A stretch of 64,000 nt of DNA from Candidatus Nomurabacteria bacterium (GCA_020632095.1 JACKGF010000001.1:866713-930712), one strand, 5' to 3'. Shown: positions 14,897 to 45,526, counted from the stretch's first letter. Numbers and translations: made by a program. Notes: a model not told the origin generated them from the sequence alone.

Positions 14897-14904
14897 AATA
14901 AAGT

Positions 14905-15427: not shown

Positions 15428-16063
15428 ATGGATACAATGCAAATCGCGATGATAGTAGTGCTTATTATTTCAGTCGTTATTCACGAAATGGCTCACGGCT
15501 ACGCAGCCAATTGGCTAGGTGACCCGACCGCCCGTTTGGCTGGTCGTCTGACCATGAATCCAATTTCTCACCTCGACCCGATGATGTCGGTTATTTTGCC
15601 TGGACTATTAATTGTTACTGGCTCACCTATCTTGTTTGGTGCCGCCAAGCCTGTACCCTATAACCCGTACAACTTCACCAACCAAAAGTGGGGGGAGGCG
15701 ATTGTGGCGGCGGCCGGTCCCGCTGCTAATATCGCAATTGCGGTTATTTTTGGAATGATTGTGCGTAGCGCCGACGCACTTAATCTATCAGATGCATTCT
15801 TGGGTCTGTCTATAAATATCATAATCCTCAATATATTTCTGGCTTTTTTCAACTTAGTACCAATCCCACCGCTAGACGGCTCAAAGATTTTACCCAAGTT
15901 CCTACCTTTTTCATTGGCAATGAAATACGATAATTTTAGACGGATGATGGAGCAAAATGTCGCTCTAGCTTTTGGATTAGTGATTTTTATTTTTGTTTTT
16001 GTTCTGGCTGACCCGATTCATCAATTAACTATTTGGTTAGCTTCTATATTGGTTGGAGCTTAA
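15428..16063 (+). CDS. Peptidase M50 (site-2 protease family) membrane metalloprotease
   Basis: HEMAHG zinc motif in TM1 and a polytopic membrane protein of 211 aa. Confidence 0.75.
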   Translation: MDTMQIAMIVVLIISVVIHEMAHGYAANWLGDPTARLAGRLTMNPISHLDPMMSVILPGLLIVTGSPILFGAAKPVPYNPYNFTNQKWGEAIVAAAGPAANIAIAVIFGMIVRSADALNLSDAFLGLSINIIILNIFLAFFNLVPIPPLDGSKILPKFLPFSLAMKYDNFRRMMEQNVALAFGLVIFIFVFVLADPIHQLTIWLASILVGA

Positions 16064-24794: not shown

Positions 24795-24909
24795 TGAATC
24801 TATAAGGTAGTTCCAGTTGTAACCAACCTCAGTAATCGACTCAATGTCCCAGAACGGAACGCCGTGAAGTGGTGTGACCGAAGTGTTTCAGCGACTTCTT
24901 TCATCGTTG

Positions 24910-25953: not shown

Positions 25954-26112
25954 CGTCTCACCTCTCTTTAGTTGTCAGGGAACATTCCGATGAGAACTGT
26001 ACTAGATATTTATTATATGTACAGAAAAACAAGAAGTTAATGTATTAGAACTAAAACAGAATATAAAATATTGTTGATTTAAAACAAATAATATGTATTA
26101 TAGTTAGTACAT

Positions 26113-26847
26113 ATGAAAGAAATAAAATCGCTATTAAAAACTTTTTTGCACAAAGAAGAAGAAATAAAGGTATTTTTATACTTACTTGAGAAGGGAGAGT
26201 CGGGTGTGCAGGAAATTGCTAGAGGTCTTAGTTTGCATCGTCCGCGAGTATATGAAACCTTAAGTGTACTGTTGGACAAAGGCTTTGTTGAGGAACTTAA
26301 GGTAGGAAAAAGGATTCACTATAAAGCAGTACAACCCTACTTTCTATTAGAAAAAGTAAAATCTATAGAAAGTGATGTTCATAAATTACTGCCTGAATTA
26401 CAGAAAATAAAAGATAAACAGACTAAAGGAATTAGTATGGAGGTTTTGCGCGGAGAAACTGGTCTCGCGGCCTGCTTCCTTGATGTGGTGATGTATTTAA
26501 AAAAAGATGACATTTTTTATCGCATCAGTTCTGCTAAAGATCAACAGTATGTTGACTCGGTGGTGCCAAAGCATTATCGACCAATTCGTGACAGTAAGAA
26601 TCTCGAACGGCGGGTGATAACAAGTCGGTATGTTGGAGAGCAAAAGAAAGCTCGCTTAGAGCGTTCGATTAGATATTTTGACGAGCAGGATGAATTGTTC
26701 GAACACAATGTTATACAGTTTATTTATGGCGATAAAATTTCTTTATTAGATTTTAATTCCTTGACGGGAACAATTATCAAGAATAAAGCGATTGCTGATT
26801 TTCAGAAAAGTATTTTCCTAACCTTGTACAAACGACTTGAAAGATAA
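26113..26847 (+). CDS. TrmB/MarR-like winged-helix transcriptional regulator
   Basis: N-terminal HTH (…LLEKGESGVQEIARGLSLHRPRVYETLSVLLDKGFV…). Confidence 0.5.
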   Translation: MKEIKSLLKTFLHKEEEIKVFLYLLEKGESGVQEIARGLSLHRPRVYETLSVLLDKGFVEELKVGKRIHYKAVQPYFLLEKVKSIESDVHKLLPELQKIKDKQTKGISMEVLRGETGLAACFLDVVMYLKKDDIFYRISSAKDQQYVDSVVPKHYRPIRDSKNLERRVITSRYVGEQKKARLERSIRYFDEQDELFEHNVIQFIYGDKISLLDFNSLTGTIIKNKAIADFQKSIFLTLYKRLER

Positions 26848-26902
26848 AGGTGTCGAATAGGATATTTGTATTTTTTGGTTTACTTAGTGTAGTATAAAGC
26901 AT

Positions 26903-27574
26903 ATGAAAAAAGCCCCAGAGAGATTGCGTTTTAGCGCTTTAGCCGTTGATGCGGTGGTATTAGGGATAGTAGATGGAGAGTTGTGTGGATTGGTTAGCGA
27001 GGTTAATAGGCCTCCGTATTATGTAAATATATTAGGCTTTCTTGGTGGTTTAATTAATATTGAAGAAAACGCGGATGAAGCTTGTGAAAGAGTGTTGTAT
27101 GAAAAAGGTGGTCTAAAAAATGTTTACGTCGAGCAACTTTATACTTTTAGTGAAGTGGAGAGAGATAAGCGTAACCGCGTTATTTCAGTGGCCTATATAG
27201 CATTGGTCCGCCCAGACACAGCTGCTAGTTATAAATTTGCAGACGCTTCTTTTGTTCCGTTAAAGAAGCTGAAGAATTTGGCTTACGACCATGACGAAAT
27301 GCTACAAATGGCCAAATCTCGACTTCAAGGTAAATTTGCCTATACCAACATAGCTCAATATTTATTGCCGCGTCACTTCACCTTGTCAGAGTTGCAGGCA
27401 ACCTACGAAATTGTCTTGCAAAAAGAATTTGATAAACGTAATTTCCGTAAGAAGGTTTTGTCTTTGGATTTAGTAAAAGAGACAGGTCTGGTGCAAGATG
27501 GAGTGAAGAATCGCCCAGCCGCTTTATATGAATTTAGTTCACAGAAAATTAAGGAGTTTCAGTTGTTGACCTAG
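26903..27574 (+). CDS. nrtR: NrtR-type regulator (Nudix domain + C-terminal winged-helix)
   Basis: Nudix-fold N-terminal half with a degenerate Nudix box, and an NrtR-like C-terminal DNA-binding half. It lies immediately upstream of NAD genes. Confidence 0.6.
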   Translation: MKKAPERLRFSALAVDAVVLGIVDGELCGLVSEVNRPPYYVNILGFLGGLINIEENADEACERVLYEKGGLKNVYVEQLYTFSEVERDKRNRVISVAYIALVRPDTAASYKFADASFVPLKKLKNLAYDHDEMLQMAKSRLQGKFAYTNIAQYLLPRHFTLSELQATYEIVLQKEFDKRNFRKKVLSLDLVKETGLVQDGVKNRPAALYEFSSQKIKEFQLLT

Positions 27575-27582
27575 GTTGAGAA

Positions 27583-27618
27583 GAAGCCACCGATTTCCGA
27601 AAGGGAATCGGTGGCTTC
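27583..27618 (+). terminator. Hairpin terminator after nrtR
   Basis: GAAGCCACCGATT-tccgaaaggg-AATCGGTGGCTTC forms a 13-bp stem; the T-run is weak. Confidence 0.4.
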
Positions 27619-27619
27619 T

Positions 27620-27675
27620 GTGTATCGGATTGACAATACACCAATTCTACTATATCTTAGTGTAAGAGGTACACT
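27620..27675 (+). promoter_or_regulatory. nadK promoter with two GTGTA..TACAC palindromes (candidate NrtR operators)
   Basis: GTGTAT-N10-ATACAC overlaps TTGACAATA, and AGTGTA-agagg-TACACT sits just before the RBS. Confidence 0.4.
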
Positions 27676-27696
27676 TATATTTTCAAGGAGACGGTC

Positions 27697-28521
27697 ATGC
27701 CTGCAAAACCGAGTAAAGTTCTACTGATTCGAGCCGAAGGTAAAAAGTATGTGACTGCTGCTGAAACGACCAGAAATCTTAAGGTTGCTTTTAGCGAGAA
27801 AGGTATTGCTGTCGACGATTGTGATGACGGTGATGTGTATGACATTGCTATCGCCATCGGCGGTGACGGTACCATGATGAAAGCGGTTACAAGTCTGGCG
27901 TCGCGCAATATTCCTACCTTGGGAATCAATGCGGGGGATGTGGGTTTCTTGACTACTGCCGAAGCTACCAAGTGGGAGCAGGTAGTTGAGAGAATTTGTT
28001 CTGGCAATTATGTGCTTGAACAAAGGTTGGGTCTTGAGCTGATTGCCAATTCAGAAGTGGTTGGACCAATCGCCAATGAAGTAGTTTTGCGCCACCCGTA
28101 CAGTGTGGCTGTTTATGAGATTAGTATTGGCGGTCAGGTGTTCTATTCGAACTTGATGGGCGATGGAGTGATGGTGGCAACCGCTACTGGTTCAACCGGC
28201 TACAATACTTCCGCCAACGGTCCGATTTTGTTGCCAAGCTCAAGCAACGTAGTGGTAACACCGCTCAATCCGATGTCATTGACCACTAGACCATTGGTGG
28301 CAGAGGAAGTGGCTCAAGGTAAAACCATCTCTGTCCGGTTGGTGGAAAGTAAGAAGAATCAACCAATCATGATAGTGGCAGACGGCGTGTTGCAAGAGAA
28401 GGGGTTGCAGGTTGGTGACTCTGTCTCACTTTGCAAATATGGGCATGCGCTGTTGTTCGCAACTTTTGGGCTGGGACAGTATGCTAAAGCATTAACTGAG
28501 AAAAAGGGATTTGCAAAATAG
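27697..28521 (+). CDS. nadK: NAD+ kinase
   Basis: GGDGT motif and DGVMVATATGSTGYNTSANGPIL. Confidence 0.9.
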   Translation: MPAKPSKVLLIRAEGKKYVTAAETTRNLKVAFSEKGIAVDDCDDGDVYDIAIAIGGDGTMMKAVTSLASRNIPTLGINAGDVGFLTTAEATKWEQVVERICSGNYVLEQRLGLELIANSEVVGPIANEVVLRHPYSVAVYEISIGGQVFYSNLMGDGVMVATATGSTGYNTSANGPILLPSSSNVVVTPLNPMSLTTRPLVAEEVAQGKTISVRLVESKKNQPIMIVADGVLQEKGLQVGDSVSLCKYGHALLFATFGLGQYAKALTEKKGFAK

Positions 28522-28543
28522 TAAGGAATAGGAAAGGAAGGTC

Positions 28544-28570
28544 AGGCGGGTTACAAAGTGACCCGCCTTT
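28544..28570 (+). terminator. Rho-independent terminator
   Basis: AGGCGGGT-tacaaagtg-ACCCGCCTTT. Confidence 0.55.
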
Positions 28571-28590
28571 AACGTCCATCATGTTGACTT

Positions 28591-28644
28591 AGTGTACACT
28601 TGACAATAATATTAGGTTAGTATAGGATAGTGTAAGAAATACAC
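28591..28644 (+). promoter_or_regulatory. nadM promoter with AGTGTACACT and AGTGTA-agaaa-TACAC palindromes (candidate NrtR operators)
   Basis: Same TTGACAATA -35 context and same palindrome type as upstream of nadK. Confidence 0.4.
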
Positions 28645-28692
28645 AAAGCAGTTCTTTACAACTTATTAACTTTCTAAACAAGAGGTAAAAGT

Positions 28693-29661
28693 ATGCAAAA
28701 AGCAAATACTCTGGGAGTGGTAATTGGTCGTTTCCAGATTCCTGATCCGCATGAAGGGCACATTGCCTTGTTTGATTATGTAGCTTCGCGACATGAAAAA
28801 ATGCTGATTTTGGTCGGTGGAAATAATGTTAGATATAACACTGCTAATCCTTTTCCTTTCCATATCATCAAAAATGTACTGGAAAGGATGTATCCTGAAG
28901 CCATTGTGCTGTCCCAGATGGACAGTCTGGTATCAAATGAACATTGGTCAGGTACGGTGGATGAAAAGGTTATGGCCGCTAGTGGTGATGGAAAGGCGAT
29001 ACTGTATGGTTCTCGCGATAGTTTCGCTAGGCGTTACCGGGGCATATTTCCGATTGAAGAAATGCCGGAAATTCCGAACTGCTCAGCCACCAAGGTGCGC
29101 GAAGATGCGGCTTCCTACCATAGCGACCACCCCGAGTTTCGCAAAGGCTGGTTGGCGGCAATTTTGTCCCAATATCCTGTCACCGACCCAACTGTCGATA
29201 TGGCAATTATCAGGCCAGACCTCAGTCAGGTATTGATGGGAAGACGTGCCAAAAAGGCACCATTCGTCAGATTTTTCGGTGGGTTTGTTGACCCGAATGA
29301 TCAATCGTACGAAGAGGCGGCTATGCGCGAACAGTGTGAAGAAGCCCTTGGAATTGTGGTGAGCAAGCCTAAGTATATTGGCTCGCAACGAATCAACGAT
29401 CCGCGTTACGGCCGTAGCAAGTATGGCATCGTCACTACATTTTTTGCGATGGAATACAAAAAGGGTACTCCTTTTGCCGGTGATGACATGGGTGAGGTCG
29501 AATGGGTTGACCTGAATTGGACCTTGGTGTCGAAGGTGGCACCAGAGCACCGTGACCTTGTTAGAAAGTTGCTGAACTACAAAGCAGACTTGATTAAAAA
29601 GTCGAAAAAAACCAAGAAGTCAAAAGCTGAGGCTAAGCGCAAGAGTAAGCGAGAGTTTTAA
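28693..29661 (+). CDS. nadM: Bifunctional NMN/NaMN adenylyltransferase (NadM-type) fused to Nudix ADP-ribose pyrophosphatase
   Basis: N-terminal GRFQIPDPHEGH (HxGH cytidylyltransferase motif); C-terminal Nudix box GGFVDPNDQSYEEAAMREQCEEALGI. Confidence 0.8.
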   Translation: MQKANTLGVVIGRFQIPDPHEGHIALFDYVASRHEKMLILVGGNNVRYNTANPFPFHIIKNVLERMYPEAIVLSQMDSLVSNEHWSGTVDEKVMAASGDGKAILYGSRDSFARRYRGIFPIEEMPEIPNCSATKVREDAASYHSDHPEFRKGWLAAILSQYPVTDPTVDMAIIRPDLSQVLMGRRAKKAPFVRFFGGFVDPNDQSYEEAAMREQCEEALGIVVSKPKYIGSQRINDPRYGRSKYGIVTTFFAMEYKKGTPFAGDDMGEVEWVDLNWTLVSKVAPEHRDLVRKLLNYKADLIKKSKKTKKSKAEAKRKSKREF

Positions 29662-33108: not shown

Positions 33109-34104
33109 TTATTTACCCATCCTCTTTTTGAGAATTTGTTCGGCGTAAATACACATCTTGTTGTGACCGAGAATTGTCCGACGCCATTCTTCCGGGATAC
33201 CACCGTAACCAAAGTGTGCACCCAGTAGACCTCCAGCAATCGCGGCGTAGGTATCAGTGTCGCCACCAACCCTGACTGCAATTTCAATTCCATCGCGGAA
33301 TGATGTCGCGTGCTTAAGTGCATAAAGCGCAACAAACAATGAAAACTCTGCCAAACCGCGGCCAGGAAATGCTCCAGGGTCGTAAGGAATCAAGTAATCA
33401 TCACTGACAGAAGCAGTTACTCGGCGATAAAATAGTTCATATCGAGGGTCGCTGTAGACCAGAATAGAATTGAAAATTGCTTCCGCTGGTGAATATCCGG
33501 CTAGGAGTTTGAGTAGCACAGCGGTATACATCCAGCAGGCTTGTAAAGCATGAGGGTGAGCGTGAGTCACTTTGGACATTCTAAACACCATGCTGCGCAT
33601 TGATGTTTCGTCTGTCCAGCCAAGTTGTGGTGGACCAAACCAAAGTGCCATCGGTGAACAGCGCATTAAGCTACCGTTGGTACCCATTGAATTGCTGAGA
33701 GCTTTGGCTACCAGCTTGGGGTTGTCACTCAAAGCATCGCGAGTAGTTTGACCAGAACCGGTCGACAAACCCTCCCACAAAAGACTCTTACGGTCGATGA
33801 CGTTGTGGCGTAGTAGGGTGTGCAAGTCTTCAATACATAGCCCGTTGTTGCGAAGCAGACTGAAGGCTAAGACCGCGGTTTGTTCAGAATCATCCGTCGG
33901 TCTCCCAGCTGGTAAATCCACCCCGTTGCCATCATTGGGCCACGGATTTTTGTAGTCAAAAAAAACAAGTCCACCGCGTGCTTCAATATCTCTGGCGATT
34001 TCTCTCGGACGCATCGTTTCGTATGGTGCGCCGATAGAGTCCCCAGCATGTACTCCAACTAATGTGCCAAGGTATTTACGCAATAATTCTTGAAATGTTT
34101 GCAC
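33109..34104 (-). CDS. ADP-ribosylglycohydrolase family protein (DraG-like)
   Basis: GDSIGAPYE and DDSEQT motifs of the ADP-ribosyl-hydrolase fold. Confidence 0.75.
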   Translation of the reverse strand: MQTFQELLRKYLGTLVGVHAGDSIGAPYETMRPREIARDIEARGGLVFFDYKNPWPNDGNGVDLPAGRPTDDSEQTAVLAFSLLRNNGLCIEDLHTLLRHNVIDRKSLLWEGLSTGSGQTTRDALSDNPKLVAKALSNSMGTNGSLMRCSPMALWFGPPQLGWTDETSMRSMVFRMSKVTHAHPHALQACWMYTAVLLKLLAGYSPAEAIFNSILVYSDPRYELFYRRVTASVSDDYLIPYDPGAFPGRGLAEFSLFVALYALKHATSFRDGIEIAVRVGGDTDTYAAIAGGLLGAHFGYGGIPEEWRRTILGHNKMCIYAEQILKKRMGK

Positions 34105-34274
34105 GTCATTTCTCCTCCTAGGTTGAGATAAACTTATCTAAAATCAAGTTAGCATTATTGGTGAGGGTGTCAATACTTGTGAAGATGAGTTCAACAATTA
34201 ATTGCAACACCTGATTAGCAGTCTAAGCTATACAGGTATGCAAAAAAGGAAACAAGTAACCCCGGAAAAAAGCT

Positions 34275-34303
34275 TGACAAAAGTCAATCGATGTGATATT
34301 TTG
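34275..34303 (+). promoter_or_regulatory. Sigma70-like promoter with TTGAC-aaaa-GTCAA palindrome over the -35
   Basis: TTGACA, a 16-nt spacer, then TATTTT; located 58 bp upstream of the ATG at 34361. Confidence 0.35.
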
Positions 34304-34360
34304 TGCAAGCTTCGTGTGAAGTAGCGTTCTTAATTCAAAATCCCTTTTAAGGAAACCACT

Positions 34361-34855
34361 ATGTCCAAAAACGACAGTCAAAAAACCACCGACCAAACCA
34401 ACTCCAAAGATCAGGTCTTCCTCGGTGGAAGCTGTGACCCGACTACCTGGCGCCAGGACATCGCAATGCCGATGTTCGACAATGCAGGTGTGGCCTACTA
34501 CAACCCTCAGGTTGCAGATTGGCATTCCGGCCTCATGGCCCTCGAAGCGGCAGCGAAGGAGGAAAGTAATATTCTCCTGTTTGTCATCGACGGCCAGACC
34601 CGGGCCATTGCCAGTATTCTGGAGTCCGTTGAGTACACGATGGCGGGTCGGAAAGTCGTCCTGGTTATCAACCAGGTCCCCGACGGTACCGTCATCGCCG
34701 GTCAGGTCGTTACGGGGCGTGAACTCAAAGACCTGAATCGTGCTCGGGAGTATCTGGGCGAACTCGCTGATCGTCACGACAATGTGACGGTTTACGAAGA
34801 TGTTGCTTCGGCTGTTCAAGCCATCTTGGATGACCGTCAGAAGCTCGCCGCCTAA
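34361..34855 (+). CDS. Nucleoside 2-deoxyribosyltransferase-like (DrHyd/NDT fold) protein; candidate N-glycoside hydrolase
   Basis: VFLGGSCD…W near the N-terminus and …ILESVEYTMAGRKVVLVI… resemble the NDT YFAGP and catalytic-Glu blocks. The DNA is GC-rich. Confidence 0.5.
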   Translation: MSKNDSQKTTDQTNSKDQVFLGGSCDPTTWRQDIAMPMFDNAGVAYYNPQVADWHSGLMALEAAAKEESNILLFVIDGQTRAIASILESVEYTMAGRKVVLVINQVPDGTVIAGQVVTGRELKDLNRAREYLGELADRHDNVTVYEDVASAVQAILDDRQKLAA

Positions 34856-34960
34856 CGGCCAACCCCTACCTCTAGCCAGGTAGACACCGTCCTCACATTT
34901 CTTCGGATTTGTGTGGGCGGTTTTTTCATATTAAATTTTAGTTGTTGATGTTTAATTATA

Positions 34961-34990
34961 AAAAAGCCCGCAAGCGTAGCTTGCGGGCGG
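34961..34990 (-). terminator. Terminator of the minus-strand pncA-vWA-PP2C-kinase operon
   Basis: On the minus strand, GCCCGCAAGC-tac-GCTTGCGGGC is followed by TTTTTT. Confidence 0.55.
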
Positions 34991-35010
34991 GGTTGGTTAA
35001 AGAGCAATAC

Positions 35011-36741
35011 TTATTGCATGCGGAGTGACCATAGTGCCCCGTCTTTCAGATAGGTAACTTGGTTTCCGATGCGCGTCAGTCGCATGTCAGTGGCGAGGTC
35101 TTTGTCGCTGACTATCTTCTGTTCCCCTCGTGAAGGAACAGTGATAACCAATTCACCGTCTTGAGCAATACTGGCTGTGACTCCCTTTGGTAGGGCGGAG
35201 AGGTTTTGCTCTGGTCCATCAAAGATACGTACACTACAGTCGTATTTTCTCCAGTCGGAATCGAACGAAAAGCTTTTGGCTTCGTATTCGCCTTTGGGGT
35301 TGATGGTGATTACCTCAACAAAACGGTTGCCGGCGATAGCGTTGATGGCTTTAATTCCATCAAGCTCCGGTGTGCGTACCATTGCCACGGCGTCGTCACC
35401 GTAGGGGGCAATTAGGTGCATTGCGCCCATGATGTCGCTGACACCAACACCTTGGAACCACTTGGTGGACTTACCAAGTATTTGCCACCGCTTACCGATA
35501 GTGAGAACCGGCTTGCTGAACTGATGAAGTGACATCTCAACCAGCTCAGTGTCATTGGCAACAAACAAACGCTCATTGCTTCTAACTACCGAGTTTATTT
35601 CCAGTGGGACAGACAGCTTAGTTTCAAGACCTTTTTGATCAATGTTCCGCCAATGCCAATCACCACCTATTTCCTCAACTACCAGCCAGCCGGAATTGTG
35701 GCTAGTTACAGCCACCCGACTCCCGCTAACTTGGCCGATTTCACGCTTGGTGGACAGATTGATTAGAGAGCCTGAGTTCATGCGCATGATTCCGCAGGGC
35801 CAGACCGACTTCACTTCATCTCCCAGTAGTTCAAACAATTTCTCGTAGATCAAACCACCAGTGGCAGTTGTAACTGTACGCAAGATGCGTCCAACAGCCG
35901 TCCGCGCTTGTCCGACTTGCAGTGGTGAAGGAGGGATACTCCGTTCGCCATCAGTGAACACAGCTTTGTACCAGTCGAGCAATGGACCAGGAATGGTTCT
36001 GAAGTCACGCACTGCTTTGTTTAGCTTAACTTCAGGTAGAAAGACGGAAGCGTTGTTTTTCATCCGCCTTTCCATCTCACCCGGTTTGTAGCCGTCGAGT
36101 TTGCCACGATACGGATGGATACCCGTATAGAGCAAAAACGTGACCACTCCCCAAGCGAACCAATCCGAAGCTTCATTGATGACACTATGCCAGTCGCGGA
36201 TAGAAGGCATTATGACCGAAGCTTTGAAGCGTTCAATCTGCCATGAGTCGACGTCGATGACGTAGGGTACTGGGTCGCTTGCGTTACTTACATCAGCTAT
36301 CCAGTTGAGTTCGTTGGCGTCTACCATCAAGGCTTTTTGGTCGTGGGCGTAAGCTACGACTTCGTGCATCTTGGCGGTCAAGCAGATGGTCGATTGCAGG
36401 TTGAAATTGTTTTGGGTCCGCCAATCGTTGGTAAAAATTCTAGGATAGGCTTCACCCGACACAAACGGCATATAGTAACCAATTGGTTTGCCGCCTGTGT
36501 CACTAACAATTCCTTGTGGTGCCACGATGGACGAGTGCTTCAAACTAGTGGCCAACAAGCGAACTTTTTTGACCATGTCATCTTGTTGCATTTTTTGTGC
36601 GTCAAGATAGAGCTTGATGATGTATTGACCATTGCGATAAATGGCCCCTTCACCCCCTTGCGTGATGTAGTCTGTGGGTCTGAGAGTCAGAGCACCATGA
36701 TCATCGAGAGTAACTTTGGTTGCGCGTGTGATCAGAGACAT
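35011..36741 (-). CDS. Atypical Ser/Thr protein kinase-like protein (YegI-like) with a C-terminal ~290-aa uncharacterised domain
   Basis: Gly-rich loop QGGEGAIY plus IIKLY lysine; HDQKALMVDANELN catalytic-loop-like; IDVDSW (DFG-like); WGVVTFLLYTGIHPY substrate-lobe motif. Confidence 0.55.
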   Translation of the reverse strand: MSLITRATKVTLDDHGALTLRPTDYITQGGEGAIYRNGQYIIKLYLDAQKMQQDDMVKKVRLLATSLKHSSIVAPQGIVSDTGGKPIGYYMPFVSGEAYPRIFTNDWRTQNNFNLQSTICLTAKMHEVVAYAHDQKALMVDANELNWIADVSNASDPVPYVIDVDSWQIERFKASVIMPSIRDWHSVINEASDWFAWGVVTFLLYTGIHPYRGKLDGYKPGEMERRMKNNASVFLPEVKLNKAVRDFRTIPGPLLDWYKAVFTDGERSIPPSPLQVGQARTAVGRILRTVTTATGGLIYEKLFELLGDEVKSVWPCGIMRMNSGSLINLSTKREIGQVSGSRVAVTSHNSGWLVVEEIGGDWHWRNIDQKGLETKLSVPLEINSVVRSNERLFVANDTELVEMSLHQFSKPVLTIGKRWQILGKSTKWFQGVGVSDIMGAMHLIAPYGDDAVAMVRTPELDGIKAINAIAGNRFVEVITINPKGEYEAKSFSFDSDWRKYDCSVRIFDGPEQNLSALPKGVTASIAQDGELVITVPSRGEQKIVSDKDLATDMRLTRIGNQVTYLKDGALWSLRMQ

Positions 36742-36762
36742 TTGGTTCTCCTTCTACTTTGT

Positions 36763-37629
36763 TTAGTTGCGATGAATGACGGCACAAGATATATCGTCAA
36801 GTGGACCGCGTCCGACTTTGCTGTTTTCGGTTAGGAACCGATTCATGCGTCGGACAGCAAATTGGCCGTTGATACTTTTGTAGGCCAAGAGTTGGCGCAC
36901 TACGTCGACACATTGCATGCCGTCAACTTGTTCCACTCCGTCGGAGAAAAGTGCCACCGAAATCAGTCGACCGTTCTTTGTTTCAAGGTCTGGGTCAGTT
37001 GGGTTACAAATCCAACCCTTCATACCAACTTCCACGGTATATCCGATTGCGGTTTGTTTGGTTTCTTTCTCACCTTCATTCGACGATATGGTTTGAGTAC
37101 TAATCGTGAATGGCAATTCAACGCTCTTGTGCGCTGACTTGAATGAATCCTCCAAGTTACCTTGCCGATAGGCGGGGTAGTAAGGAGTGTTCATGTTCCA
37201 ATCAAATTGGTGAATCACCAGACAGTTTTCATACTGTATAGCCACCACCCCGTCGCCGATTACATTGATGAATATTGATTCATCTTGGTTGATGGCATAG
37301 AGGCAAGTTGCGAGCAGGTCGGGATGAGTCAGTCCGAGTTGCACCCGGTACAATTCCAGATAGTTGTTTCTAAGTTGATTGACTTGGGTGATGAATGCTT
37401 CGTCAACCAACGAATCACTAGTGGATAGTTCCTCCAAGGCTCGTTTGGTCGCCAAGACAATCAGTCGTGACCCAATGTCGGTCATTCCACCGCTGGAGCA
37501 ACCATCGCTGACGATGGTGTAGTTTGTGTAGTTGTTGAGAGTGCCACTCAAGGTGTAGTCTTGATTTGGTTTACCATTACTTCTGTGTTGGAAGCCAATG
37601 TGAAAGGCGTGGTCTGTGACAAAAGTCAT
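36763..37629 (-). CDS. PP2C-family Ser/Thr protein phosphatase
   Basis: …RSNGKPNQDY… and …VSDGCSSGGMTD… match PP2C motifs (RxxxxNQD, DGxGG). Confidence 0.7.
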   Translation of the reverse strand: MTFVTDHAFHIGFQHRSNGKPNQDYTLSGTLNNYTNYTIVSDGCSSGGMTDIGSRLIVLATKRALEELSTSDSLVDEAFITQVNQLRNNYLELYRVQLGLTHPDLLATCLYAINQDESIFINVIGDGVVAIQYENCLVIHQFDWNMNTPYYPAYRQGNLEDSFKSAHKSVELPFTISTQTISSNEGEKETKQTAIGYTVEVGMKGWICNPTDPDLETKNGRLISVALFSDGVEQVDGMQCVDVVRQLLAYKSINGQFAVRRMNRFLTENSKVGRGPLDDISCAVIHRN

Positions 37630-37699
37630 GTTGTTCTCCTTTGAGAAAAGAAAAAGGGAGGCGCTGGTTGGCGCCTCCCAAGAGTTTCAAAAGAACAGA

Positions 37700-38542
37700 T
37701 TAGATGGTAGCCGAGATTTTTTGACTCGGACCACCAGTTCCCAAGGCTTGGGAGGTGGATGAGATTGATTGAGAGACAAACTCGGCCAATTTGGCCAACT
37801 TGTCTTTGGTCGCTTCACCAGCCCAGATGAACTGGTTTATGCCAGCGTCCTGTTGGAAGTTAGCCAGGTCATTTTTGGCGCCACCGTATCCGGTATCGAT
37901 ACCGACCAGGATTGAGACGTGTGACTCCATGATTTCACCGGTGATTGACCTCGCCAGCTCGTCCTTGACCATTTGGACTCCGGCTCCTTGCGAAGCATTT
38001 TCGCCGCCGTCGGTAATGATGAAACTGATACCGTTGACGGCAAAGTCGAGGTCATAGAGCTGTTTGGCGTAGGTGTTCATGGCGCCCACGGCTGAGAAGA
38101 TTGCATCGTAGAGTGGGGTTGCACCACCACCGCGCAGAGTCGGATAGCTATTGATGTCGATTTCCGAAAGTGACTTGAAGCCGTGGATTTCGTCGACACC
38201 GTTGCCATTTTGTCGCGAGTACTGTGACCCGAAACGAATCACGCGAATGAGCAGGTTGTTGGCGTAAGGAGATTTGAAGCAGGCTTCGACTGAAGCGCGC
38301 AGCATATCCCCGATTTGCTTTTCAAAGCCGCCGATTGAACCAGTCTCGTCGAGCGCGATGGTGACCAGCGTATAGCCGGCTCCGGCCGCGTCTTCTTCGT
38401 TGATGATGGCACCAGAGAAATTGAAACCGCTACCGATTTCGAATTCTTCCATTGCGTCTTGACCGGCGATTTTTTGGCTGTTTGCCATGATGTTTCTCCT
38501 AAATTTGGGTTGGTTGTGGGTGCAGGCGAAGCCTGCACCCAT
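37700..38542 (-). CDS. von Willebrand factor A (vWA) domain protein, TerY-like
   Basis: MIDAS elements IALDETGSI (DxSxS), TPLYDAI and IITDGGEN. Confidence 0.7.
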   Translation of the reverse strand: MGAGFACTHNQPKFRRNIMANSQKIAGQDAMEEFEIGSGFNFSGAIINEEDAAGAGYTLVTIALDETGSIGGFEKQIGDMLRASVEACFKSPYANNLLIRVIRFGSQYSRQNGNGVDEIHGFKSLSEIDINSYPTLRGGGATPLYDAIFSAVGAMNTYAKQLYDLDFAVNGISFIITDGGENASQGAGVQMVKDELARSITGEIMESHVSILVGIDTGYGGAKNDLANFQQDAGINQFIWAGEATKDKLAKLAEFVSQSISSTSQALGTGGPSQKISATI

Positions 38543-38548
38543 GGATAC

Positions 38549-39379
38549 TCAGGCCAGTAAAGCGTCTGAGGTGGTCAGCTTCATGCCGAGCGCCGACATA
38601 TCCTTGAGGAATTGTTCAGCAATGGCAGGAAAGTCGACGACGACTGTTCCGTCAGGAGCAGTGACCGCCGGCACGGGCGACATGCAGTCGGTGAGTAGTT
38701 GAAACTTCTTCACGTGCTCGGAACCGATGTTTTCGGCGACTTGCTCGACTGTCGCTTTCACGCAGTGACTTGATGCTTCGCCGGCTACCACCACCAGGTC
38801 TGCTTGTTGCAGCATGGAGAGGAAGCGGCCGTTGAGTTGAGTCGACGGATCCTTGGCAATCGGCACTTCGGCCAAGAGGGCACCGTAGTGTTCGGTGAGA
38901 ACATTGGTACCTTTGGTAACGAAGTCGATGTTGCGAACGCGCTGAATGCACCAGCGGTCAAGCGCCGCGGCCAGATTGGTTTGGACGTTGTGTCCCCAGG
39001 AGCCAATCAAGCAGTGGGGCGGCCAAACCATGATCTGGTATTTACCGTTGGCTTCGAGCTTCTGCGCGTAGTCAAGGACATAATCACGCAGTTCCGGCCG
39101 ACGAGGTGACCAGGTGCCATCCTTGATGGAAGCAAAAGAAATCATCGTCATCGGATTGGGCGAAACGCCATTGGCGTCGCGCCAGAAAGCCGGATGGGCG
39201 ATGTCCACCAATTGGTGGCTGTCCATCGTGACGTGAACCTTCTGCAGTTTTTGACCCACGCGGTCGAGCATGGTGGCCAGACGATTCATGTCGTCGTTAG
39301 CACCAGCTACCGGCAGGGCGGCCCCTTTGATGTCCATAAAGTCATTTTGGGGGTCGATAATCAGGAGTTGAACATTCAT
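38549..39379 (-). CDS. pncA: Nicotinamidase/pyrazinamidase (isochorismatase family) with an internal insertion
   Basis: LLIIDPQNDF, WPPHCLIGSWG and catalytic Cys in VAGEASSHCV match PncA blocks. The start is placed at MNVQLL with an AAAGGAAAA RBS. Confidence 0.65.
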   Translation of the reverse strand: MNVQLLIIDPQNDFMDIKGAALPVAGANDDMNRLATMLDRVGQKLQKVHVTMDSHQLVDIAHPAFWRDANGVSPNPMTMISFASIKDGTWSPRRPELRDYVLDYAQKLEANGKYQIMVWPPHCLIGSWGHNVQTNLAAALDRWCIQRVRNIDFVTKGTNVLTEHYGALLAEVPIAKDPSTQLNGRFLSMLQQADLVVVAGEASSHCVKATVEQVAENIGSEHVKKFQLLTDCMSPVPAVTAPDGTVVVDFPAIAEQFLKDMSALGMKLTTSDALLA

Positions 39380-39557
39380 CTTTTTTCCTTTCAGGAAGTA
39401 GTGAGACCAAGGTCTCGGTTTACACACGGTTGTGTGATATGCGATTTTTCAAAGAACATCCTCAATTTCCGTTGAGGTGAGGACTCCGGTTAGGTATCGG
39501 AATCTTCACCTTAAAAGAATAGAGTGTATTTAATACACGAACTACTCGCTTTGTTTA

Positions 39558-39657
39558 TCCGCACTGTGTGCGGAGCTGTCCATAGGCGGGAGCAGTCGGT
39601 TAATAATTGTGAAACTTACACGAAGTAAGGTTGTAAGTTATCCGCACTAGGTGCGGA
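39558..39657. promoter_or_regulatory. Pair of 17-bp palindromes TTA-TCCGCAC-N3-GTGCGGA upstream of the pncA operon (candidate operators)
   Basis: Copies at 39558-39574 and 39641-39657, with identical arms and centres 83 bp apart. Confidence 0.4.
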
Positions 39658-39815
39658 CAACTTCCTTACTGCTGTAAATCTATCAAAGTACTAACTTAGT
39701 GTCAAGTATACACAAAGGAAAAATAAATGCAAGTGTTTTGTGTTAGGTTGTTGAAAATCAAAACATGTGATTTTTAGGCCTTTACTTCAATATTAGATAG
39801 GTTCATACTTAACTC

Positions 39816-40395: not shown

Positions 40396-40603
40396 ATTGA
40401 AGTACTAGTGAGGTACAAAATTGTTTAATTATGAACACAGGATTTCGATATCAAAGCTATCAATATTTTGAAAGTGGTCTTATAATTACCTGTGTAACAA
40501 TTTATGTTGCAAAGGTAATTATTTAAATATGGCAAAAGGACAAGACAAGAAAAAAGAGGTAAAAAAACCAAAAAAGCCTAAAGCTTAAGGTTAGTATTAT
40601 CAT

Positions 40604-40630
40604 AAAGGCCGGCGCGGAGCGCCGGCCTTT
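40604..40630. terminator. Bidirectional palindromic terminator (copy of the 21162 terminator)
   Basis: AAAGGCCGGCGCG-ga-GCGCCGGCCTTT. Confidence 0.55.
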
Positions 40631-40873
40631 ATGATTCCTGATACAATATCAGGAATAACTATTTATTTTATGGACCCAAGAATACAACAACAATTAGATG
40701 AACAAGAAGTAAAGATTAATGAGATTTTAAAATCTGTTCGAAAGACTGAGAAGTATATGAAAATTACTTTCTGGGCAACTATTATAGTGGTAGTTTTGCC
40801 AGCCATATTATTGGCTTTTGTTATTCCTTCAGCTATAGATTCGTACACCACAACTCTGAATGGATTAATCTAA
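40631..40873 (+). CDS. Hypothetical small membrane protein (true start possibly at 40670)
   Basis: A C-terminal TM helix is present, but the ORF start overlaps the terminator. Confidence 0.25.
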   Translation: MIPDTISGITIYFMDPRIQQQLDEQEVKINEILKSVRKTEKYMKITFWATIIVVVLPAILLAFVIPSAIDSYTTTLNGLI

Positions 40874-41850: not shown

Positions 41851-43386
41851 ATGAAAACAGTAATCAATATAACTATCGGCGGACTAGTCTTCGCGATTGA
41901 ACAAGACGCCTACGATTCCTTGGAAAAATACATCAAAGAAATCAAACAAACTCTGGTAGAGGGTGATGACGTGAATGAAATTGTCTCAGATATTGAAACG
42001 GCTATTGCTGAGAAGTTATCAGAAAGAGGTCGGAGTGAAAGAATTGCTGTGACAGAAGATGATATTAATAAAGTGATTCTTGAAATGGGGGCACCGATTG
42101 ATTTTAAGGAAGCAGGAGGTGTAGAAGGAGAGTCTGCGCAGTCAGAAACTGAAGATAAAAAAGATGAAATAAAAAAGCGCTTGTATCGTGACACAGACGA
42201 TGTCGTGATAGCCGGAGTAGCTTCTGGAATTGCCAAGTATTTCGATATCGATCCCGCAATCGTGCGAATAATTTTTGTGGCTGCCTTATTCTTTAATGGA
42301 ATTGGAATTATTGCTTATCTTATTTTTTGGTTAGCTGTACCGGTAGCAAAAACTACCACTGAAAAATACGCTATGAGTGGTGACAAAGTAACCCTAAAAG
42401 AAATCACTGAAAGAGTAAAAAAAAATATTAATGATATAGATAAAGAGGACTTAGAAAAAGCCCGAGGTCTTTGGAACAGTTTGCTTTCGGGATTAAAGAG
42501 AATATTTTCTTTAATTGGAATTTGCATTAAAGTATTGTTTTCAATTTTGCGCTACGTAGTGGGATTTTCATTTTTGTTAGCAGGAAGTTTTGCCATGGCG
42601 GGATTAGTGTCGGCCTTGGTGATAATTCTGTTTGTTGATAATGCATCTATTCCACAAAGTATTCAGCCTGCTATGCAGTTGGTCCTGTCTAGTCCGCTTG
42701 GGGTAATTTCTATTGTCTCAGTTTTTCTCACTGCAGTTATCCCTTTCGTTGTGCTTTTGTTGGCAGGCGGTAGTTTAATTTCAAAAAGAATTATATTATC
42801 AGTGACAAAAAGTATCACTTTAGCAGCGGTATGGATTGTGGCTTTGGTTTTAGCTATTACAACATCAGCTGTACAGATTGATAGAGTTTTGGAAAAGGTC
42901 GGTCCAATCAATGTTGAAGATAATGACTTTATGATAAACATCAATCGTTCGGAAGAAGGAATAAAAATTGATGTTACCGATAAAGATAGAAAACAAAATA
43001 GTAAAATAGAAGTGAGTGAAGATGTAGCTCCAAACTTGCCTAAGATTGAGATTTATAGTGGTTTGTCGTTTACGCAAAATAGTACAGTAATCAATTTGGC
43101 TCGAAAAGGATTGGAAGGTTCATTGAAAGCAGAGGTTGGACAATTTGTTGCTTTAACGGAATTGGATATAAGTAACAATAATTTTACTGATTTGCCGGCT
43201 GAGATCGGACAGCTAAGTCAACTTCAGGTGTTAAATTTATCGAATAATAATTTTACCGGATTACCACATGAGCTTGGTAATTTAGAAAATTTGCAAGTGC
43301 TTGATTTACGTGGAAATAACATTTCAAAATTTGATTTGCAGATAATTAGAGAAAAGCTAGGTGAAGAGGTGACTGTTGTTGAATAA
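41851..43386 (+). CDS. PspC-domain membrane protein with C-terminal leucine-rich repeats
   Basis: PspC motif (…DDVVIAGVASGIAKYFDIDPAIVRIIFV…), multiple TM helices, and LRRs (LxxLxLSNNNFTxLP ×3). Confidence 0.7.
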   Translation: MKTVINITIGGLVFAIEQDAYDSLEKYIKEIKQTLVEGDDVNEIVSDIETAIAEKLSERGRSERIAVTEDDINKVILEMGAPIDFKEAGGVEGESAQSETEDKKDEIKKRLYRDTDDVVIAGVASGIAKYFDIDPAIVRIIFVAALFFNGIGIIAYLIFWLAVPVAKTTTEKYAMSGDKVTLKEITERVKKNINDIDKEDLEKARGLWNSLLSGLKRIFSLIGICIKVLFSILRYVVGFSFLLAGSFAMAGLVSALVIILFVDNASIPQSIQPAMQLVLSSPLGVISIVSVFLTAVIPFVVLLLAGGSLISKRIILSVTKSITLAAVWIVALVLAITTSAVQIDRVLEKVGPINVEDNDFMININRSEEGIKIDVTDKDRKQNSKIEVSEDVAPNLPKIEIYSGLSFTQNSTVINLARKGLEGSLKAEVGQFVALTELDISNNNFTDLPAEIGQLSQLQVLNLSNNNFTGLPHELGNLENLQVLDLRGNNISKFDLQIIREKLGEEVTVVE

Positions 43387-43435: not shown

Positions 43436-45526
43436 TTACATATCCGCTCGCCAGCGCTTTAACATTCGAGATAGTATTAATGAGACAATAAATATGACAA
43501 TTGATAGAGCTAAGAACTTCGGATCAAAGGCGTTGAAAGACAGTCCATTCATCTGAAATTCGTCTAAGTCAACGGCAGCTCCGAGGGCTACAAAAGTGGT
43601 TAGTCCAGGCATGATACCGATGAGGGTAGCAAAGAAGTATTCTTTCCAGTCGGCTTTTACAACACCAGCACCATAGTTGGTAAGGTCAAAAGGAACATAG
43701 AATAAACGCATTAATAAAACTGTTTCAAAAGAATTTTTACGCAAAGCCTCAATCCAGTTACCAATTATGGTATCCTCCAACTTTAAGTCTTTGCCAAAGA
43801 AGCGACCAATCCAATAGGCGAAGTTGGCGGAAGCATTTTCTCCCAAAATGGTATAGAGGATACCCCACCAAAATCCAAACAACGCACCAGAGAGAGCGGT
43901 GAGTAAGGTGGCTGGGAAAAGAATGAGTGGCCTGATAGCGTACAGCGTCATATACACTAACGGTCCCCACATGGTAGAGGTAAAGAAATGGAGTAGTTGA
44001 AACAGAACGTCTTGGTAGGAGTAAGAATGACTAATACGATAATGTTGGAAGGTATAAATTAATGTAATCCAAAATACAGCGGCTAGGAATTTTGGGGTAC
44101 TTCTTTTTATCAAACTAATTACATCGCTTTCTAAACTGCTTAGTTGACGACTAACAAACTGGTCGGCAGCTTTTTTAACAATTAGAGAGTAGGTAGGGTA
44201 GGCGTAAATAATATTTTGTAATTTCCAGAGAGTGATTCTTTGCTCGATAGCTAGGGTGAAGATTGAAATTAATTCACCGGCCGCTGGCCCTATAATATGT
44301 GCTCCTAAAATAGTGCCATTAAGGCGTCGGGCGATGACAATTAAAATTCCGTCGGTAGTTTCATCAGTCTTGGCTCTGTCGTTTTCTGAGAATGGAACTT
44401 CGATACGCATCAATTCATCCTCTTTATATTTTTTGATTGATTCACTCCAGGACAATCCAACTTGGGCTACTTCTGGATAAGTATAGGTAACTTTTGGAAC
44501 AGATTTACGTTTGTCGACCCGGAAGAGACCGTAGCTAGCAACTCGCTTCACCACTTGTCTGGCAATATCGTCAGCGGTGTGAGTAAATTTTAATTTTTGG
44601 GCTACGTCACCAATAGCATAAACATACTTATTTGAAGTACGGTGTTGGCTGTCGACCATGATGCAGTGATTATCAAATTTTATTCCAGCACTTTCTAAAC
44701 CTTGGGGAATATTGGGAACTCTGCCGATGGCGATTAGAACTTTATCGAAAGGAACTTTCATTTCTCCTGTGATAATTTCATCTACTCTATGATCAAAGAT
44801 AGCGACGTTGTTTTTTACTCGGTTTATAAATGCCTGTAGATGAATTGTGATACCGAGCTTGTCAAAGTGCTTTTTTAAAAGGGGTCTAATTGCTGCGTCT
44901 TCTAGTTGAGCGAATTCTTTATCAATGGTCGCAATGGTAACCTCGCTACCTAACATAGCTAAGGCCTGTCCCAGTTCGAGTCCAATTGGTCCGGCGCCGA
45001 TGATGAGAGTTTTAGGGGGAATGGTTTTGAGATTAAAAATGTTTTGGTTGGTTAGGGTGTCGGTTTCGTTAAGTCCAGGAACATTAATCATGCGGGGGCT
45101 AGAGCCAGTCGCTATGATAGCGGTTTTATAGTCGAAAACTGTGTCGCCAATTTTTATTGAACACTTGGTATTAAAAACTGCCTCACCCATTACTACATCG
45201 ATACCAAGTTTTGAAAATGTTTCTGGTGTTTCATCGGCAAGGATTTTGTTAATGGTGTCACGGACATAGGTCATGGCACCGGCGCGAAAAGCTTCGCTTT
45301 TCGCGCCGTCTCCTACTGCTTTAGTTGCTAGATAATATTCTTTGGCTTTATGTAGTAGAGCTTTGCTAGGAATACAACCAGTATTGGTACATTCGCCACC
45401 CATATGCTCATGTTCCACCAGTAAGACTCGTTTACCAACTTTAGAAAACCCGACCGCCGCTGTCAGTCCACCTGAACCAGCTCCAATTACAACGACGTCA
45501 TAGTTATTATTCATACCTTCGACCAA
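43436..45526 (-). CDS. Class I pyridine nucleotide-disulfide oxidoreductase (FAD, CxxxxC) fused to a C-terminal DedA/TVP38-family membrane domain
   Basis: N-terminal GAGSGG FAD motif and redox-active CTNTGC; the last ~230 aa carry 5-6 TM helices resembling a DedA domain. Confidence 0.7.
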   Translation of the reverse strand: MVEGMNNNYDVVVIGAGSGGLTAAVGFSKVGKRVLLVEHEHMGGECTNTGCIPSKALLHKAKEYYLATKAVGDGAKSEAFRAGAMTYVRDTINKILADETPETFSKLGIDVVMGEAVFNTKCSIKIGDTVFDYKTAIIATGSSPRMINVPGLNETDTLTNQNIFNLKTIPPKTLIIGAGPIGLELGQALAMLGSEVTIATIDKEFAQLEDAAIRPLLKKHFDKLGITIHLQAFINRVKNNVAIFDHRVDEIITGEMKVPFDKVLIAIGRVPNIPQGLESAGIKFDNHCIMVDSQHRTSNKYVYAIGDVAQKLKFTHTADDIARQVVKRVASYGLFRVDKRKSVPKVTYTYPEVAQVGLSWSESIKKYKEDELMRIEVPFSENDRAKTDETTDGILIVIARRLNGTILGAHIIGPAAGELISIFTLAIEQRITLWKLQNIIYAYPTYSLIVKKAADQFVSRQLSSLESDVISLIKRSTPKFLAAVFWITLIYTFQHYRISHSYSYQDVLFQLLHFFTSTMWGPLVYMTLYAIRPLILFPATLLTALSGALFGFWWGILYTILGENASANFAYWIGRFFGKDLKLEDTIIGNWIEALRKNSFETVLLMRLFYVPFDLTNYGAGVVKADWKEYFFATLIGIMPGLTTFVALGAAVDLDEFQMNGLSFNAFDPKFLALSIVIFIVSLILSRMLKRWRADM

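Follow-up and report, generated by a model that had tools for sequence, protein, structure and literature searches.

A Conserved Gene Cassette of a Nicotinamidase-Type Hydrolase and a TerY-P-Type Triad in a Predicted NAD-Salvage Regulon of Patescibacteria

Genes at the Locus

A stretch of 64,000 nucleotides from a Candidatus Nomurabacteria bacterium (GCA_020632095.1, JACKGF010000001.1:866713-930712; hereafter the window, with positions counted from its first letter) carries on its minus strand four consecutive genes for a divergent nicotinamidase, a vWA protein, a PP2C-type phosphatase and an atypical Ser/Thr kinase, which are together referred to as the cassette. The corresponding open reading frames (ORFs) have been located at 38549-39427(-), 37700-38542(-), 36763-37629(-) and 35011-36741(-), and a fifth one, encoding an NDT-like protein, at 34361-34855(+). 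All five lie where a first-pass annotation of this DNA had placed them, and the dense shadow ORFs it had mentioned are likewise present in the ORF scan. Independent gene calls on this DNA in other metagenomes let the first two genes start at 39379 and 38488, for products of 276 and 262 aa, respectively. The window itself is a piece of bacterial chromosome encoding EF-G, EF-Tu, RecJ, an ABC-F protein and a PspC-domain protein; a phage origin has been rejected on the grounds of these genes and of a megablast search that gave no match in phages. Its best protein matches come from metagenome-assembled genomes (MAGs) of Patescibacteria, and hypothetical proteins from MAGs labelled Candidatus Kaiserbacteria or Nomurabacteria (Patescibacteria) match its proteins with 100% identity; such labels have been assigned automatically for many MAGs and may be incorrect. 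Two other metagenomes have independently yielded an assembly of the cassette locus.

Related loci have been gathered by a scan for the kinase family with one genome per species, which gave 77 loci, and two more (L001 and L003) were added through exact-protein look-ups. Sufficient upstream DNA is available in 70 of them; among the remaining nine, seven are cut by contig ends, and the other two, L079 and L080, have distant relatives of the kinase and lack the cassette. In all 70 informative loci, isolates of Bradyrhizobium included, the genes for nicotinamidase, vWA, PP2C and kinase follow each other in this order on a single strand, and as every locus was gathered through the kinase, the linkage is proven in one direction only. 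The proposal that a pncA gene and the triad are linked has thus been borne out by the neighbourhood survey as a recurrent arrangement rather than an accident of this genome. The carriers are mostly Patescibacteria, joined by three cultivated strains of Bradyrhizobium, a Thermosynechococcus MAG, an Agitococcus MAG and others; Bradyrhizobium embrapense SEMIA 6208 and Bradyrhizobium sp. Ai1a-2 are carriers.

The Nicotinamidase-Type Hydrolase

The first gene (38549-39379, minus strand, 276 aa) encodes a divergent metal-type nicotinamidase with the isochorismatase fold of PncA, an assignment based on profiles and conserved residues. A profile built from 28 family members matches only nicotinamidases in the PDB, with a best E-value of 1.9e-10. 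In the numbering of the 292-aa ORF (start at 39427), the catalytic triad consists of D25, which is nearly invariant among the 28 sequences, and of the invariant K172 and C222, and these residues align with the equivalent motifs of PDB nicotinamidase 29iv. Equally conserved in the 28 sequences are D69 and H71 of the DSH motif and H138 of the WPxHC motif, which we take to be metal ligands as in the structures of Pnc1 and PncA. An Asp-His-His metal site sets nicotinamidases apart from other enzymes of the isochorismatase fold. Homologues carry the name nicotinamidase in their source databases, and from the conserved catalytic and metal-site residues the cassette enzyme is predicted to deamidate nicotinamide to nicotinate.

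Compared with canonical PncA/Pnc1 proteins (PDB 2h0r, 3pl1 and 1im5), the IDxQNDF motif (IDPQNDF here), the D-x-H, WPxHC and KG motifs and the catalytic Cys motif all align. The cassette enzyme is longer, however, with ∼275 aa against 180-220 aa, and falls under the thresholds of the curated families. It contains a conserved insertion of ∼60 aa between the D-x-H and WPxHC motifs that has an invariant His, Trp and Arg of its own. The earlier description as a genuine PncA has therefore to be narrowed: the PDB profile matches and the catalytic and metal-site residues support it, but the scores under the Pfam and NCBIfam thresholds place the protein in a divergent subfamily. A canonical isochorismatase-family protein (PF00857, 249 aa, L001:16378-17127) is encoded in addition between nadE and pncB of the related locus L001 and is absent from the window; the cassette nicotinamidase is 26% identical to it.

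The vWA–PP2C–Kinase Triad

The second product (37700-38488, minus strand, 262 aa) has been assigned as a YegL/TerY-like vWA protein from an AlphaFold2 (AF2) model and its motifs. It has no Pfam match and no PDB sequence match; its AF2 model (predicted template modelling score 0.80) matches the domains of vWF-A1, ITIH1, complement C2a, integrin I and Rpn10, and the residues of the metal ion-dependent adhesion site (MIDAS), D65, S/T67, S69, T142 and D178, are conserved. The claim of a vWA protein with an intact MIDAS has hence been upheld, by these deeper methods only. The protein ends in a Ser/Thr-rich tail that is strikingly conserved, FVSQS(I/V)SSxSQALGTGGPSQxIxATI, and several of its homologues are labelled "YegL" by JGI. 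The third gene (36763-37629, minus strand) encodes a PphC-like PP2C-type Ser/Thr phosphatase of 288 aa, whose identity, already stated in the first-pass annotation, is confirmed by a Pfam PP2C_2 match with an E-value of 1.9e-18. The fourth (35011-36741, minus strand) encodes a YegI-type Ser/Thr kinase (residues 1-270), identified by profile, AF2 and Foldseek comparisons, that is fused to an all-beta, propeller-like domain (residues 286-576). The catalytic loop had been called degenerate, a description that does not hold: it retains the catalytic Asp D141 and Asn N146 and is of the same atypical type as that of Escherichia coli YegI, which is an active kinase despite the same deviations. The predicted C-terminal domain of ∼290 aa is present as described; structure prediction gives it an all-beta fold with ∼29 beta strands over residues 286-576, and the best Foldseek match of the kinase covers the LRRK2 kinase plus WD40 region. 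PDB sequence searches with the vWA protein and the kinase gave nothing useful.

In profile comparisons with the E. coli proteins, the kinase matches YegI with a probability of 97% (E 5e-11; the hhalign match comprises only residues 5-214) and the phosphatase matches PphC with 92% (E 8e-7). The vWA protein matches YegL weakly in hhalign (43%, E 2.5e-4), the Ser-rich C-terminal motif being common to both (L..F/W.S.S..S.S). Since the three folds and the gene order vWA, PP2C, kinase are also those of the E. coli yegL-pphC(yegK)-yegI locus, the trio appears to be related to the YegL-PphC-YegI or TerY-P triad, in line with the type first proposed for it. The kinase and YegI share their atypical motifs as well, with no HRD and with D-x-D-S in place of DFG (IDVDSW here, IDSDSF in YegI). 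The two loci differ in several respects: the E. coli locus has no nicotinamidase gene, is interrupted by yegJ and is not known to be under NrtR control, and YegI contains two transmembrane segments where the cassette kinase has its all-beta tail.

The vWA-PP2C-kinase triad has reportedly been known from genomics since the work of Anantharaman, Iyer and Aravind in 2012. Like TerY-P systems, the cassette encodes a TerY-like vWA protein alongside a PP2C phosphatase and a Ser/Thr kinase, and the TerY-P triad has been predicted to form a metal-dependent phosphorylation switch. To call it uncharacterised goes too far, as YegI and PphC have been studied biochemically and TerY-P-like modules have been reported as stand-alone anti-phage systems (Gao et al., 2020); TerY-P triads are also found embedded in restriction-type systems. 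According to the CoCoNuT paper, TerY-P kinases end in a zinc ribbon in the CoCoNuT-linked version or in an OB fold in the defence version, in contrast to the beta-rich, propeller-like domain seen here. The cassette differs further in that a nicotinamidase is always part of it and that its ties are to nicotinamide adenine dinucleotide (NAD) salvage and NrtR, not to ter genes or restriction systems.

NAD Genes and the Predicted NrtR Regulon

A gene for NrtR, PncB, NadE, NadK or a NadM-like Nudix protein lies at most 9 kb from the cassette in 48 of the 70 loci, with NrtR found in 36 and PncB in 34. The association extends beyond Patescibacteria: L069 has genes for a Nudix protein, an NAPRTase and NadE directly downstream of the cassette, and L078 has nrtR divergently upstream. 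The window itself encodes a salvage set of Prs, an Apt-Nudix fusion, NrtR, NadK, a NadM-like adenylyltransferase-Nudix protein, PncB and NadE, of which NadE and the NAPRTase are plain Pfam matches. The cassette enzyme is the only nicotinamidase candidate in the window and completes a Preiss-Handler route. Within the NAD cluster (23943-29661), an adenine-phosphoribosyltransferase-like domain is fused to a Nudix domain (23943-24794, minus strand), a 322-aa protein (28693-29661) shows a weak match to NadM-type nicotinamide mononucleotide adenylyltransferases in its N-terminal half and a Nudix domain in its C-terminal half, and a Prs-like gene (24910-25953) and a TrmB-family regulator gene (26113-26847) stand next to nrtR.

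The inferred regulator is NrtR, a Nudix-related, ADP-ribose-responsive repressor encoded at 26903-27574 on the plus strand. The palindrome TAGTGTA-N5-TACACTA has been counted nine times in the window against 2.8 expected, a number reached in 0 of 100 shuffles, and five of its six best sites precede nadK, the nadM-like gene and the cassette. These include an NrtR-type operator at 27658-27676 upstream of nadK and two (28590 and 28628) within 28590-28646 upstream of nadM-like/Nudix, pncB and nadE. In 41 of 68 related loci, the palindrome stands no more than 450 bp ahead of the nicotinamidase gene; its density there is 2.06 per kb compared with 0.067 per kb elsewhere (30-fold enriched), and it also precedes nrtR, pncB and nadE. 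Most NrtR sites reportedly have a GT-N7-AC core, and NrtR is reported to be released by ADP-ribose in vitro (Rodionov et al., 2008). The distribution of the operators and the GT-N7-AC core lead us to infer that the cassette is a member of the NrtR regulon. The link to NAD metabolism has turned out stronger than had been guessed at first, given the NAD genes near so many cassettes and the common operators.

Arrangements of nrtR, pncA and pncB are classic NrtR regulons (Rodionov et al., 2008). In these salvage operons as at the cassette, a Nudix-related repressor is encoded nearby, GT-N7-AC palindromes overlap the promoter or lie just after it, the regulated genes begin with a nicotinamidase, and the regulon also includes pncB and nadE. 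The nicotinamidase described here forms a separate, longer subfamily, and among the four occurrences of the word "kinase" in the text of that paper, those listed refer to NAD-pathway enzymes or the ROK family of regulators.

Promoter Region and Leader RNA

Only one good promoter-like site has been found upstream of the cassette, at 39677-39705 on the minus strand (TTGACA, a spacer of 17 nt, TAGATT, and TG before the -10 hexamer), within a block that is conserved in relatives. NrtR-type operator 1 (TAGTGTCAAGTATACACAA, 39697-39715) overlaps the -35 hexamer (39700-39705), has the GT-N7-AC core described for NrtR sites and has an aligned box in L001 and L005-L009, and NrtR-type operator 2 (GAGTGTATTTAATACACGA, 39522-39540) lies in the leader and corresponds to the conserved second box of the relatives. 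Alignment with eight relatives has revealed a conserved upstream layout in which box 1 with the -35 hexamer is followed by a short hairpin, box 2 and an element of ∼80 nt with two hairpins.

The twin upstream palindromes noticed in the first reading are perfect copies of the 17-bp sequence TCCGCACnnnGTGCGGA, at 39641-39657 and 39558-39574. The former would form a 5'-proximal hairpin in the minus-strand transcript, extendable to arms of 13 nt; the latter is a direct repeat at a spacing of 83 bp and sits in a leader insertion that is specific to the window and lacking in most relatives. At the aligned position of the first copy, the relatives have hairpins of other sequence with the pairing kept; because these differ in sequence at the same position, the palindrome fits an RNA stem-loop. 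That the twin palindromes are operators for NrtR or another regulator common to the NAD genes has been rejected, as the window contains no further copy even at three mismatches.

Further downstream in the leader, a structured RNA is predicted at 39442-39519 (minus strand) from RNAalifold and a covariance model. It comprises a long hairpin P1 and a short hairpin P2, followed by the invariant UGUUCUUUGAAAA, and according to RNAalifold 12 of its 18 pairs are kept through compensatory changes. The covariance model R1, whose E-values are rough owing to a short calibration, matches only upstream of the nicotinamidase, in the window and nine relatives, that is in ten genomes of the close clade (copies at L001:5266-5348, L004:6279-6362, L005:6281-6365, L006:6110-6189, L007:6297-6378, L008:6244-6328, L009:6335-6418, L010:5494-5574 and L067:6181-6264). 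This restriction to one gene and one clade has led to the rejection of a general element of the NAD regulon; the leader could be an attenuator or an unknown riboswitch. An Rfam scan of 33-41 kb gave no family for the leader or elsewhere at E ≤ 1, apart from sub-threshold small-RNA noise at 40.5-40.7 kb. There, at 40540-40710, small-RNA families pile up on both strands (ar35, FsrA and AbsR25; best E 0.012, far under the gathering scores) over an 80-aa ORF at 40631-40873, which is probably noise.

Transcript Units

The cassette is closed by a strong intrinsic terminator at 34966-34988, between the convergent kinase and NDT-like genes, in agreement with the terminator claimed for 34961-34990. The postulated single operon has been only partly retained: the four genes form one co-directional unit, but a GC-rich, terminator-like hairpin (GGGAGGCGCC...GGCGCCTCCC plus a T-run, 37656-37679, minus strand) in the vWA-PP2C spacer divides it. 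By strict criteria, a hairpin with a T-run is present in this spacer in 47 of 70 loci, in the nicotinamidase-vWA spacer in 3 of 70 and in the PP2C-kinase spacer in 0 of 70. Judged from this arrangement, the genes may be read as one co-directional unit with a built-in attenuation point, and the hairpin therefore implies that nicotinamidase and vWA protein would exceed phosphatase and kinase. The hairpin is conserved in position and not in sequence, and it is absent in Bradyrhizobium, where the spacer measures 27-46 bp. An extra NrtR-type box has been noticed 30-39 bp upstream of the PP2C gene, just past the internal terminator, in two close relatives (L001:7118-7136 and L006:8094-8112), which suggests separate NrtR control of the PP2C-kinase half there.

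One may ask from this whether a housekeeping pncA and an independent signalling triad simply stand side by side, with no functional coupling. The internal terminator that separates vWA from PP2C would agree with such a view, as would the fact that a pncA downstream of NrtR operators is ordinary. The terminator, however, follows the vWA gene and not the nicotinamidase gene, and the vWA gene always comes directly after the nicotinamidase on the same strand, across a spacer that averages ∼60 bp by tblastn coordinates (4258 bp over 70 loci) and so seldom contains a terminator-like hairpin. The four genes moreover travel together into unrelated phyla and contexts, and the nicotinamidase belongs to a distinct subfamily, remote from the canonical protein in L001. 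Mere adjacency is hence hardly credible as an explanation.

Base Composition and the Question of a Genomic Island

The segment 34275-39700 has a GC content of 0.501 (50.1%), compared with 0.424 for the window, 0.454 for the left flank with the NAD genes and 0.356 for the right flank. The GC-rich block reported from inspection is thus real as a shift (50.1% against 42.4%), but the estimate of mid-50s against ∼40% was too high. The shift towards GC-rich codons has proven genuine as well: GC content at third codon positions (GC3) amounts to 0.66 for the nicotinamidase, 0.62 for vWA, 0.53 for both PP2C and kinase and 0.64 for the NDT-like gene, at a mean of 0.39 (standard deviation 0.09) for 51 ORFs chosen as likely genes and a value of 0.31 for EF-Tu. 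For 34966-39430 and the 64 related loci compared with it, GC3 peaks in the genes for nicotinamidase and vWA protein, and translation-factor genes of the window have low values.

Such a shift had been taken to indicate a horizontally acquired module, in its strict form a recently acquired, genome-specific island in which the whole 5-kb segment was imported. The GC3 of the cassette genes and the NDT-like gene, 1.5-2.9 standard deviations over the window mean, speaks for an import, as do the sharp right boundary, where GC falls from 0.52 to 0.37 within 500 bp, and the NDT-like gene, whose GC is the highest and which none of the relatives has. Nevertheless, the same excess recurs elsewhere: in 62 of 64 genomes, the GC content of the cassette exceeds that of its remaining locus, the mean difference being 5.2 points, so that the shift belongs to the cassette wherever it occurs. 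The left flank with its NAD genes also lies above the window mean. Both flanks are syntenic: L001 and L006-L009 share with the window the order and orientation of the genes for a 103-aa protein, GIY-YIG, an 80-aa protein and DUF1905 upstream and for the ADP-ribosylglycohydrolase, NadE and PncB downstream, and these relatives are distant enough for their kinases to be only 63-67% identical (64% in L001). In L004, the cassette proteins are 54-74% identical to those of the window and the neighbouring NAD genes 56-66%, so that the cassette is about as diverged as the genes beside it. No tRNA gene occurs in the window, and neither an integrase nor convincing flanking repeats have been found around the cassette. 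A 14-nt AT-rich direct repeat (34949-34962, TGTTTAATTATAAA; 40422-40435, TGTTTAATTATGAA) does bracket it at a spacing of 5473 bp and is probably a chance match. Among the hallmarks of genomic islands, then, the compositional shift is present, whereas absence from relatives and mobility genes at the borders are not found. A recent acquisition of the module in this genome is not supported by these findings; the recent-island view is already largely refuted for the cassette and is very improbable as a whole, and only the insertion of the NDT-like gene fits a recent event.

Neighbouring Genes

The NDT-like gene (PF15891; 34361-34855, plus strand) and an ADP-ribosylglycohydrolase gene (33109-34104, minus strand; Pfam ADP_ribosyl_GH, E 2e-51) lie beside the cassette, as the first-pass annotation had noted and Pfam has confirmed. 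The former, whose product matches Nuc_deoxyri_tr2 with an E-value of 1.4e-18, had been counted to the module, from which it has now been removed, since it has no homologue in any other locus (L001-L080). It occupies the site of a 112-bp spacer in L001, has a promoter-like site of its own at 34274-34302, and looks like a lineage-specific insertion outside the module. Its phage relatives are weak, namely Lak megaphages with 41-42% identity over 46% of the protein and the Clostridioides phage phiCD418. The ADP-ribosylglycohydrolase gene comes directly after the kinase in close relatives, and in L001 an 851-aa gene, which the window lacks, stands between it and nadE. On the other side, a protein encoded at 41851-43386 (plus strand) unites PspC and PspC-transmembrane domains with C-terminal leucine-rich repeats, and one of ∼692-696 aa at 43436-45526 (minus strand) combines a pyridine-nucleotide-disulfide oxidoreductase with a VTT (DedA-like) membrane domain (Pfam, L082).

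Carriers Outside Patescibacteria and a Possible Role in Defence

The cassette proteins of Bradyrhizobium are 42-60% identical to those of the window, which is on par with distant Patescibacteria, and since the nicotinamidase is 60% identical, the cassette has evidently crossed phylum boundaries as a unit. The gap between PP2C and kinase in Bradyrhizobium contains extra ORFs, one in L053 (8591-8977, 128 aa) and two in L047 (8301-8986, 152 and 93 aa). The cassette there is part of a long co-directional row with radical-SAM, PRAI-like, DEDD-exonuclease (RNase_T) and HerA-like genes (L053:2119-3450, 12087-13109 and 13681-15435).

Alternatively, the cassette might serve against phages or in other conflicts as a member of the TerY-P class, with the nicotinamidase as effector or accessory. 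The beta-domain of the kinase would sense a phage cue and activate the switch, and nicotinamide would be destroyed, which would either starve a phage that reconstitutes NAD or keep NAD-depleting effectors uninhibited; control by NrtR would tie expression to the ADP-ribose that NADase-type immunity releases. The anti-phage function of TerY-P-like modules and their occurrence within restriction-type systems are in favour, together with the movement between phyla, the HerA-like ATPase, DEDD-exonuclease and radical-SAM genes of Bradyrhizobium, and the excess of GC and GC3 over the flanks in nearly all genomes, which fits a frequently exchanged element. On the contrary, a scan against PADLOC-DB gave no match for vWA or PP2C and only a marginal one for the kinase (PD-T4-6, E 0.004), and the large beta domain of the kinase differs from the OB fold or zinc ribbon of described TerY-P systems. 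Within the present clade, the cassette keeps its synteny, has diverged in the manner of the housekeeping genes around it and has the same operator as the core NAD-salvage genes, and no other defence genes have been seen adjoining it in the Patescibacteria loci examined. Taken together, a role in defence seems rather unlikely, although it and the NAD-salvage reading set out below are not fully exclusive of each other.

Proposed Mechanism

We lean towards the explanation that the four conserved genes make up one module, which joins a nicotinamidase to a TerY-P-type phospho-switch and which, here and in most Patescibacteria, belongs to an NAD-salvage regulon of NrtR. NrtR would sit on the two operators, one of them covering the -35 hexamer of the cassette promoter, until cleavage of NAD lets ADP-ribose accumulate and the repressor is released, as the published mechanism of NrtR implies. 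The cassette would then be transcribed along with nadK and nadM-like/pncB/nadE, and its first product would convert nicotinamide, as its conserved residues predict, to nicotinate, which may feed PncB, then the NadM-like adenylyltransferase and then NadE. Removal of nicotinamide would also clear a product inhibitor of NAD-cleaving and ADP-ribosylating enzymes. The internal terminator would keep nicotinamidase and vWA protein in excess over PP2C and kinase; the atypical YegI-type kinase, with its C-terminal beta-rich domain as a putative sensor, and the PP2C phosphatase would set the phosphorylation state of the vWA protein. Its Ser/Thr-rich C-terminal tail appears to be the likeliest substrate of the kinase, and one may speculate that its phosphorylation gates a MIDAS-dependent interaction, which in turn might adjust the nicotinamidase or some other step in NAD turnover.

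Several observations weigh against this explanation. The nicotinamidase stays below the cutoffs of Pfam Isochorismatase PF00857 (20.1 bits, cutoff 27) and of NCBIfam nicotinamidase PRK11609 (30.5 bits, cutoff 174), and with these scores and the insertion of ∼60 aa its substrate could be a different one. Because L001 has a canonical isochorismatase as well, the cassette enzyme is not simply the housekeeping PncA everywhere. The cassette's place in the predicted NrtR regulon has been assigned from the shape of the motif and the logic of the regulon. In Bradyrhizobium, the gene neighbourhood looks like that of a conflict system, with no NrtR box at the cassette and no NAD-salvage gene near it in the tblastn survey and a Pfam scan of ten neighbouring ORFs in L053. 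The sampling through the kinase does not show that every member of this nicotinamidase subfamily has the triad. Finally, the literature has yielded no experiment on any member of the cassette, and nothing found identifies the target of kinase and phosphatase.

A wider idea may be attached to the coupling of nicotinamidase and switch, namely that TerY-P-type switches in general are sensors or controllers of NAD cleavage, induced here by ADP-ribose through NrtR and with a vWA protein, itself controlled by kinase and phosphatase, switching a dedicated nicotinamidase on or off. We consider this generalisation unlikely for now. If true, the switch would decide whether the nicotinamide that NADases, sirtuins or ADP-ribosyltransferases release is recycled, is left to inhibit these enzymes, or is withheld from the NAD-rebuilding enzymes of an invader, and it would represent an undescribed post-translational layer of control on NAD turnover, possibly with an immune function.

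Implications

The triad as such (TerY-P / YegL-PphC-YegI) is already known, as are pncA operons under the control of NrtR. In the full-text literature, to which the 2012 TerY-P paper did not belong, the constant linkage of triad and nicotinamidase, the beta-domain tail of the kinase and the membership in an NrtR regulon are not described. The target and the signal of the triad have not been identified in the accessible literature, and this branch offers three handles on them, a predictable reaction (nicotinamide to nicotinate), a regulator with the known ligand ADP-ribose, and cultivable carriers in Bradyrhizobium. The connection between cassette and NAD would be the first testable metabolic link for this family of switches. 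For Patescibacteria, whose small genomes presumably make NAD salvage important, the cassette suggests an extra, so far unrecognised layer of control on salvage.

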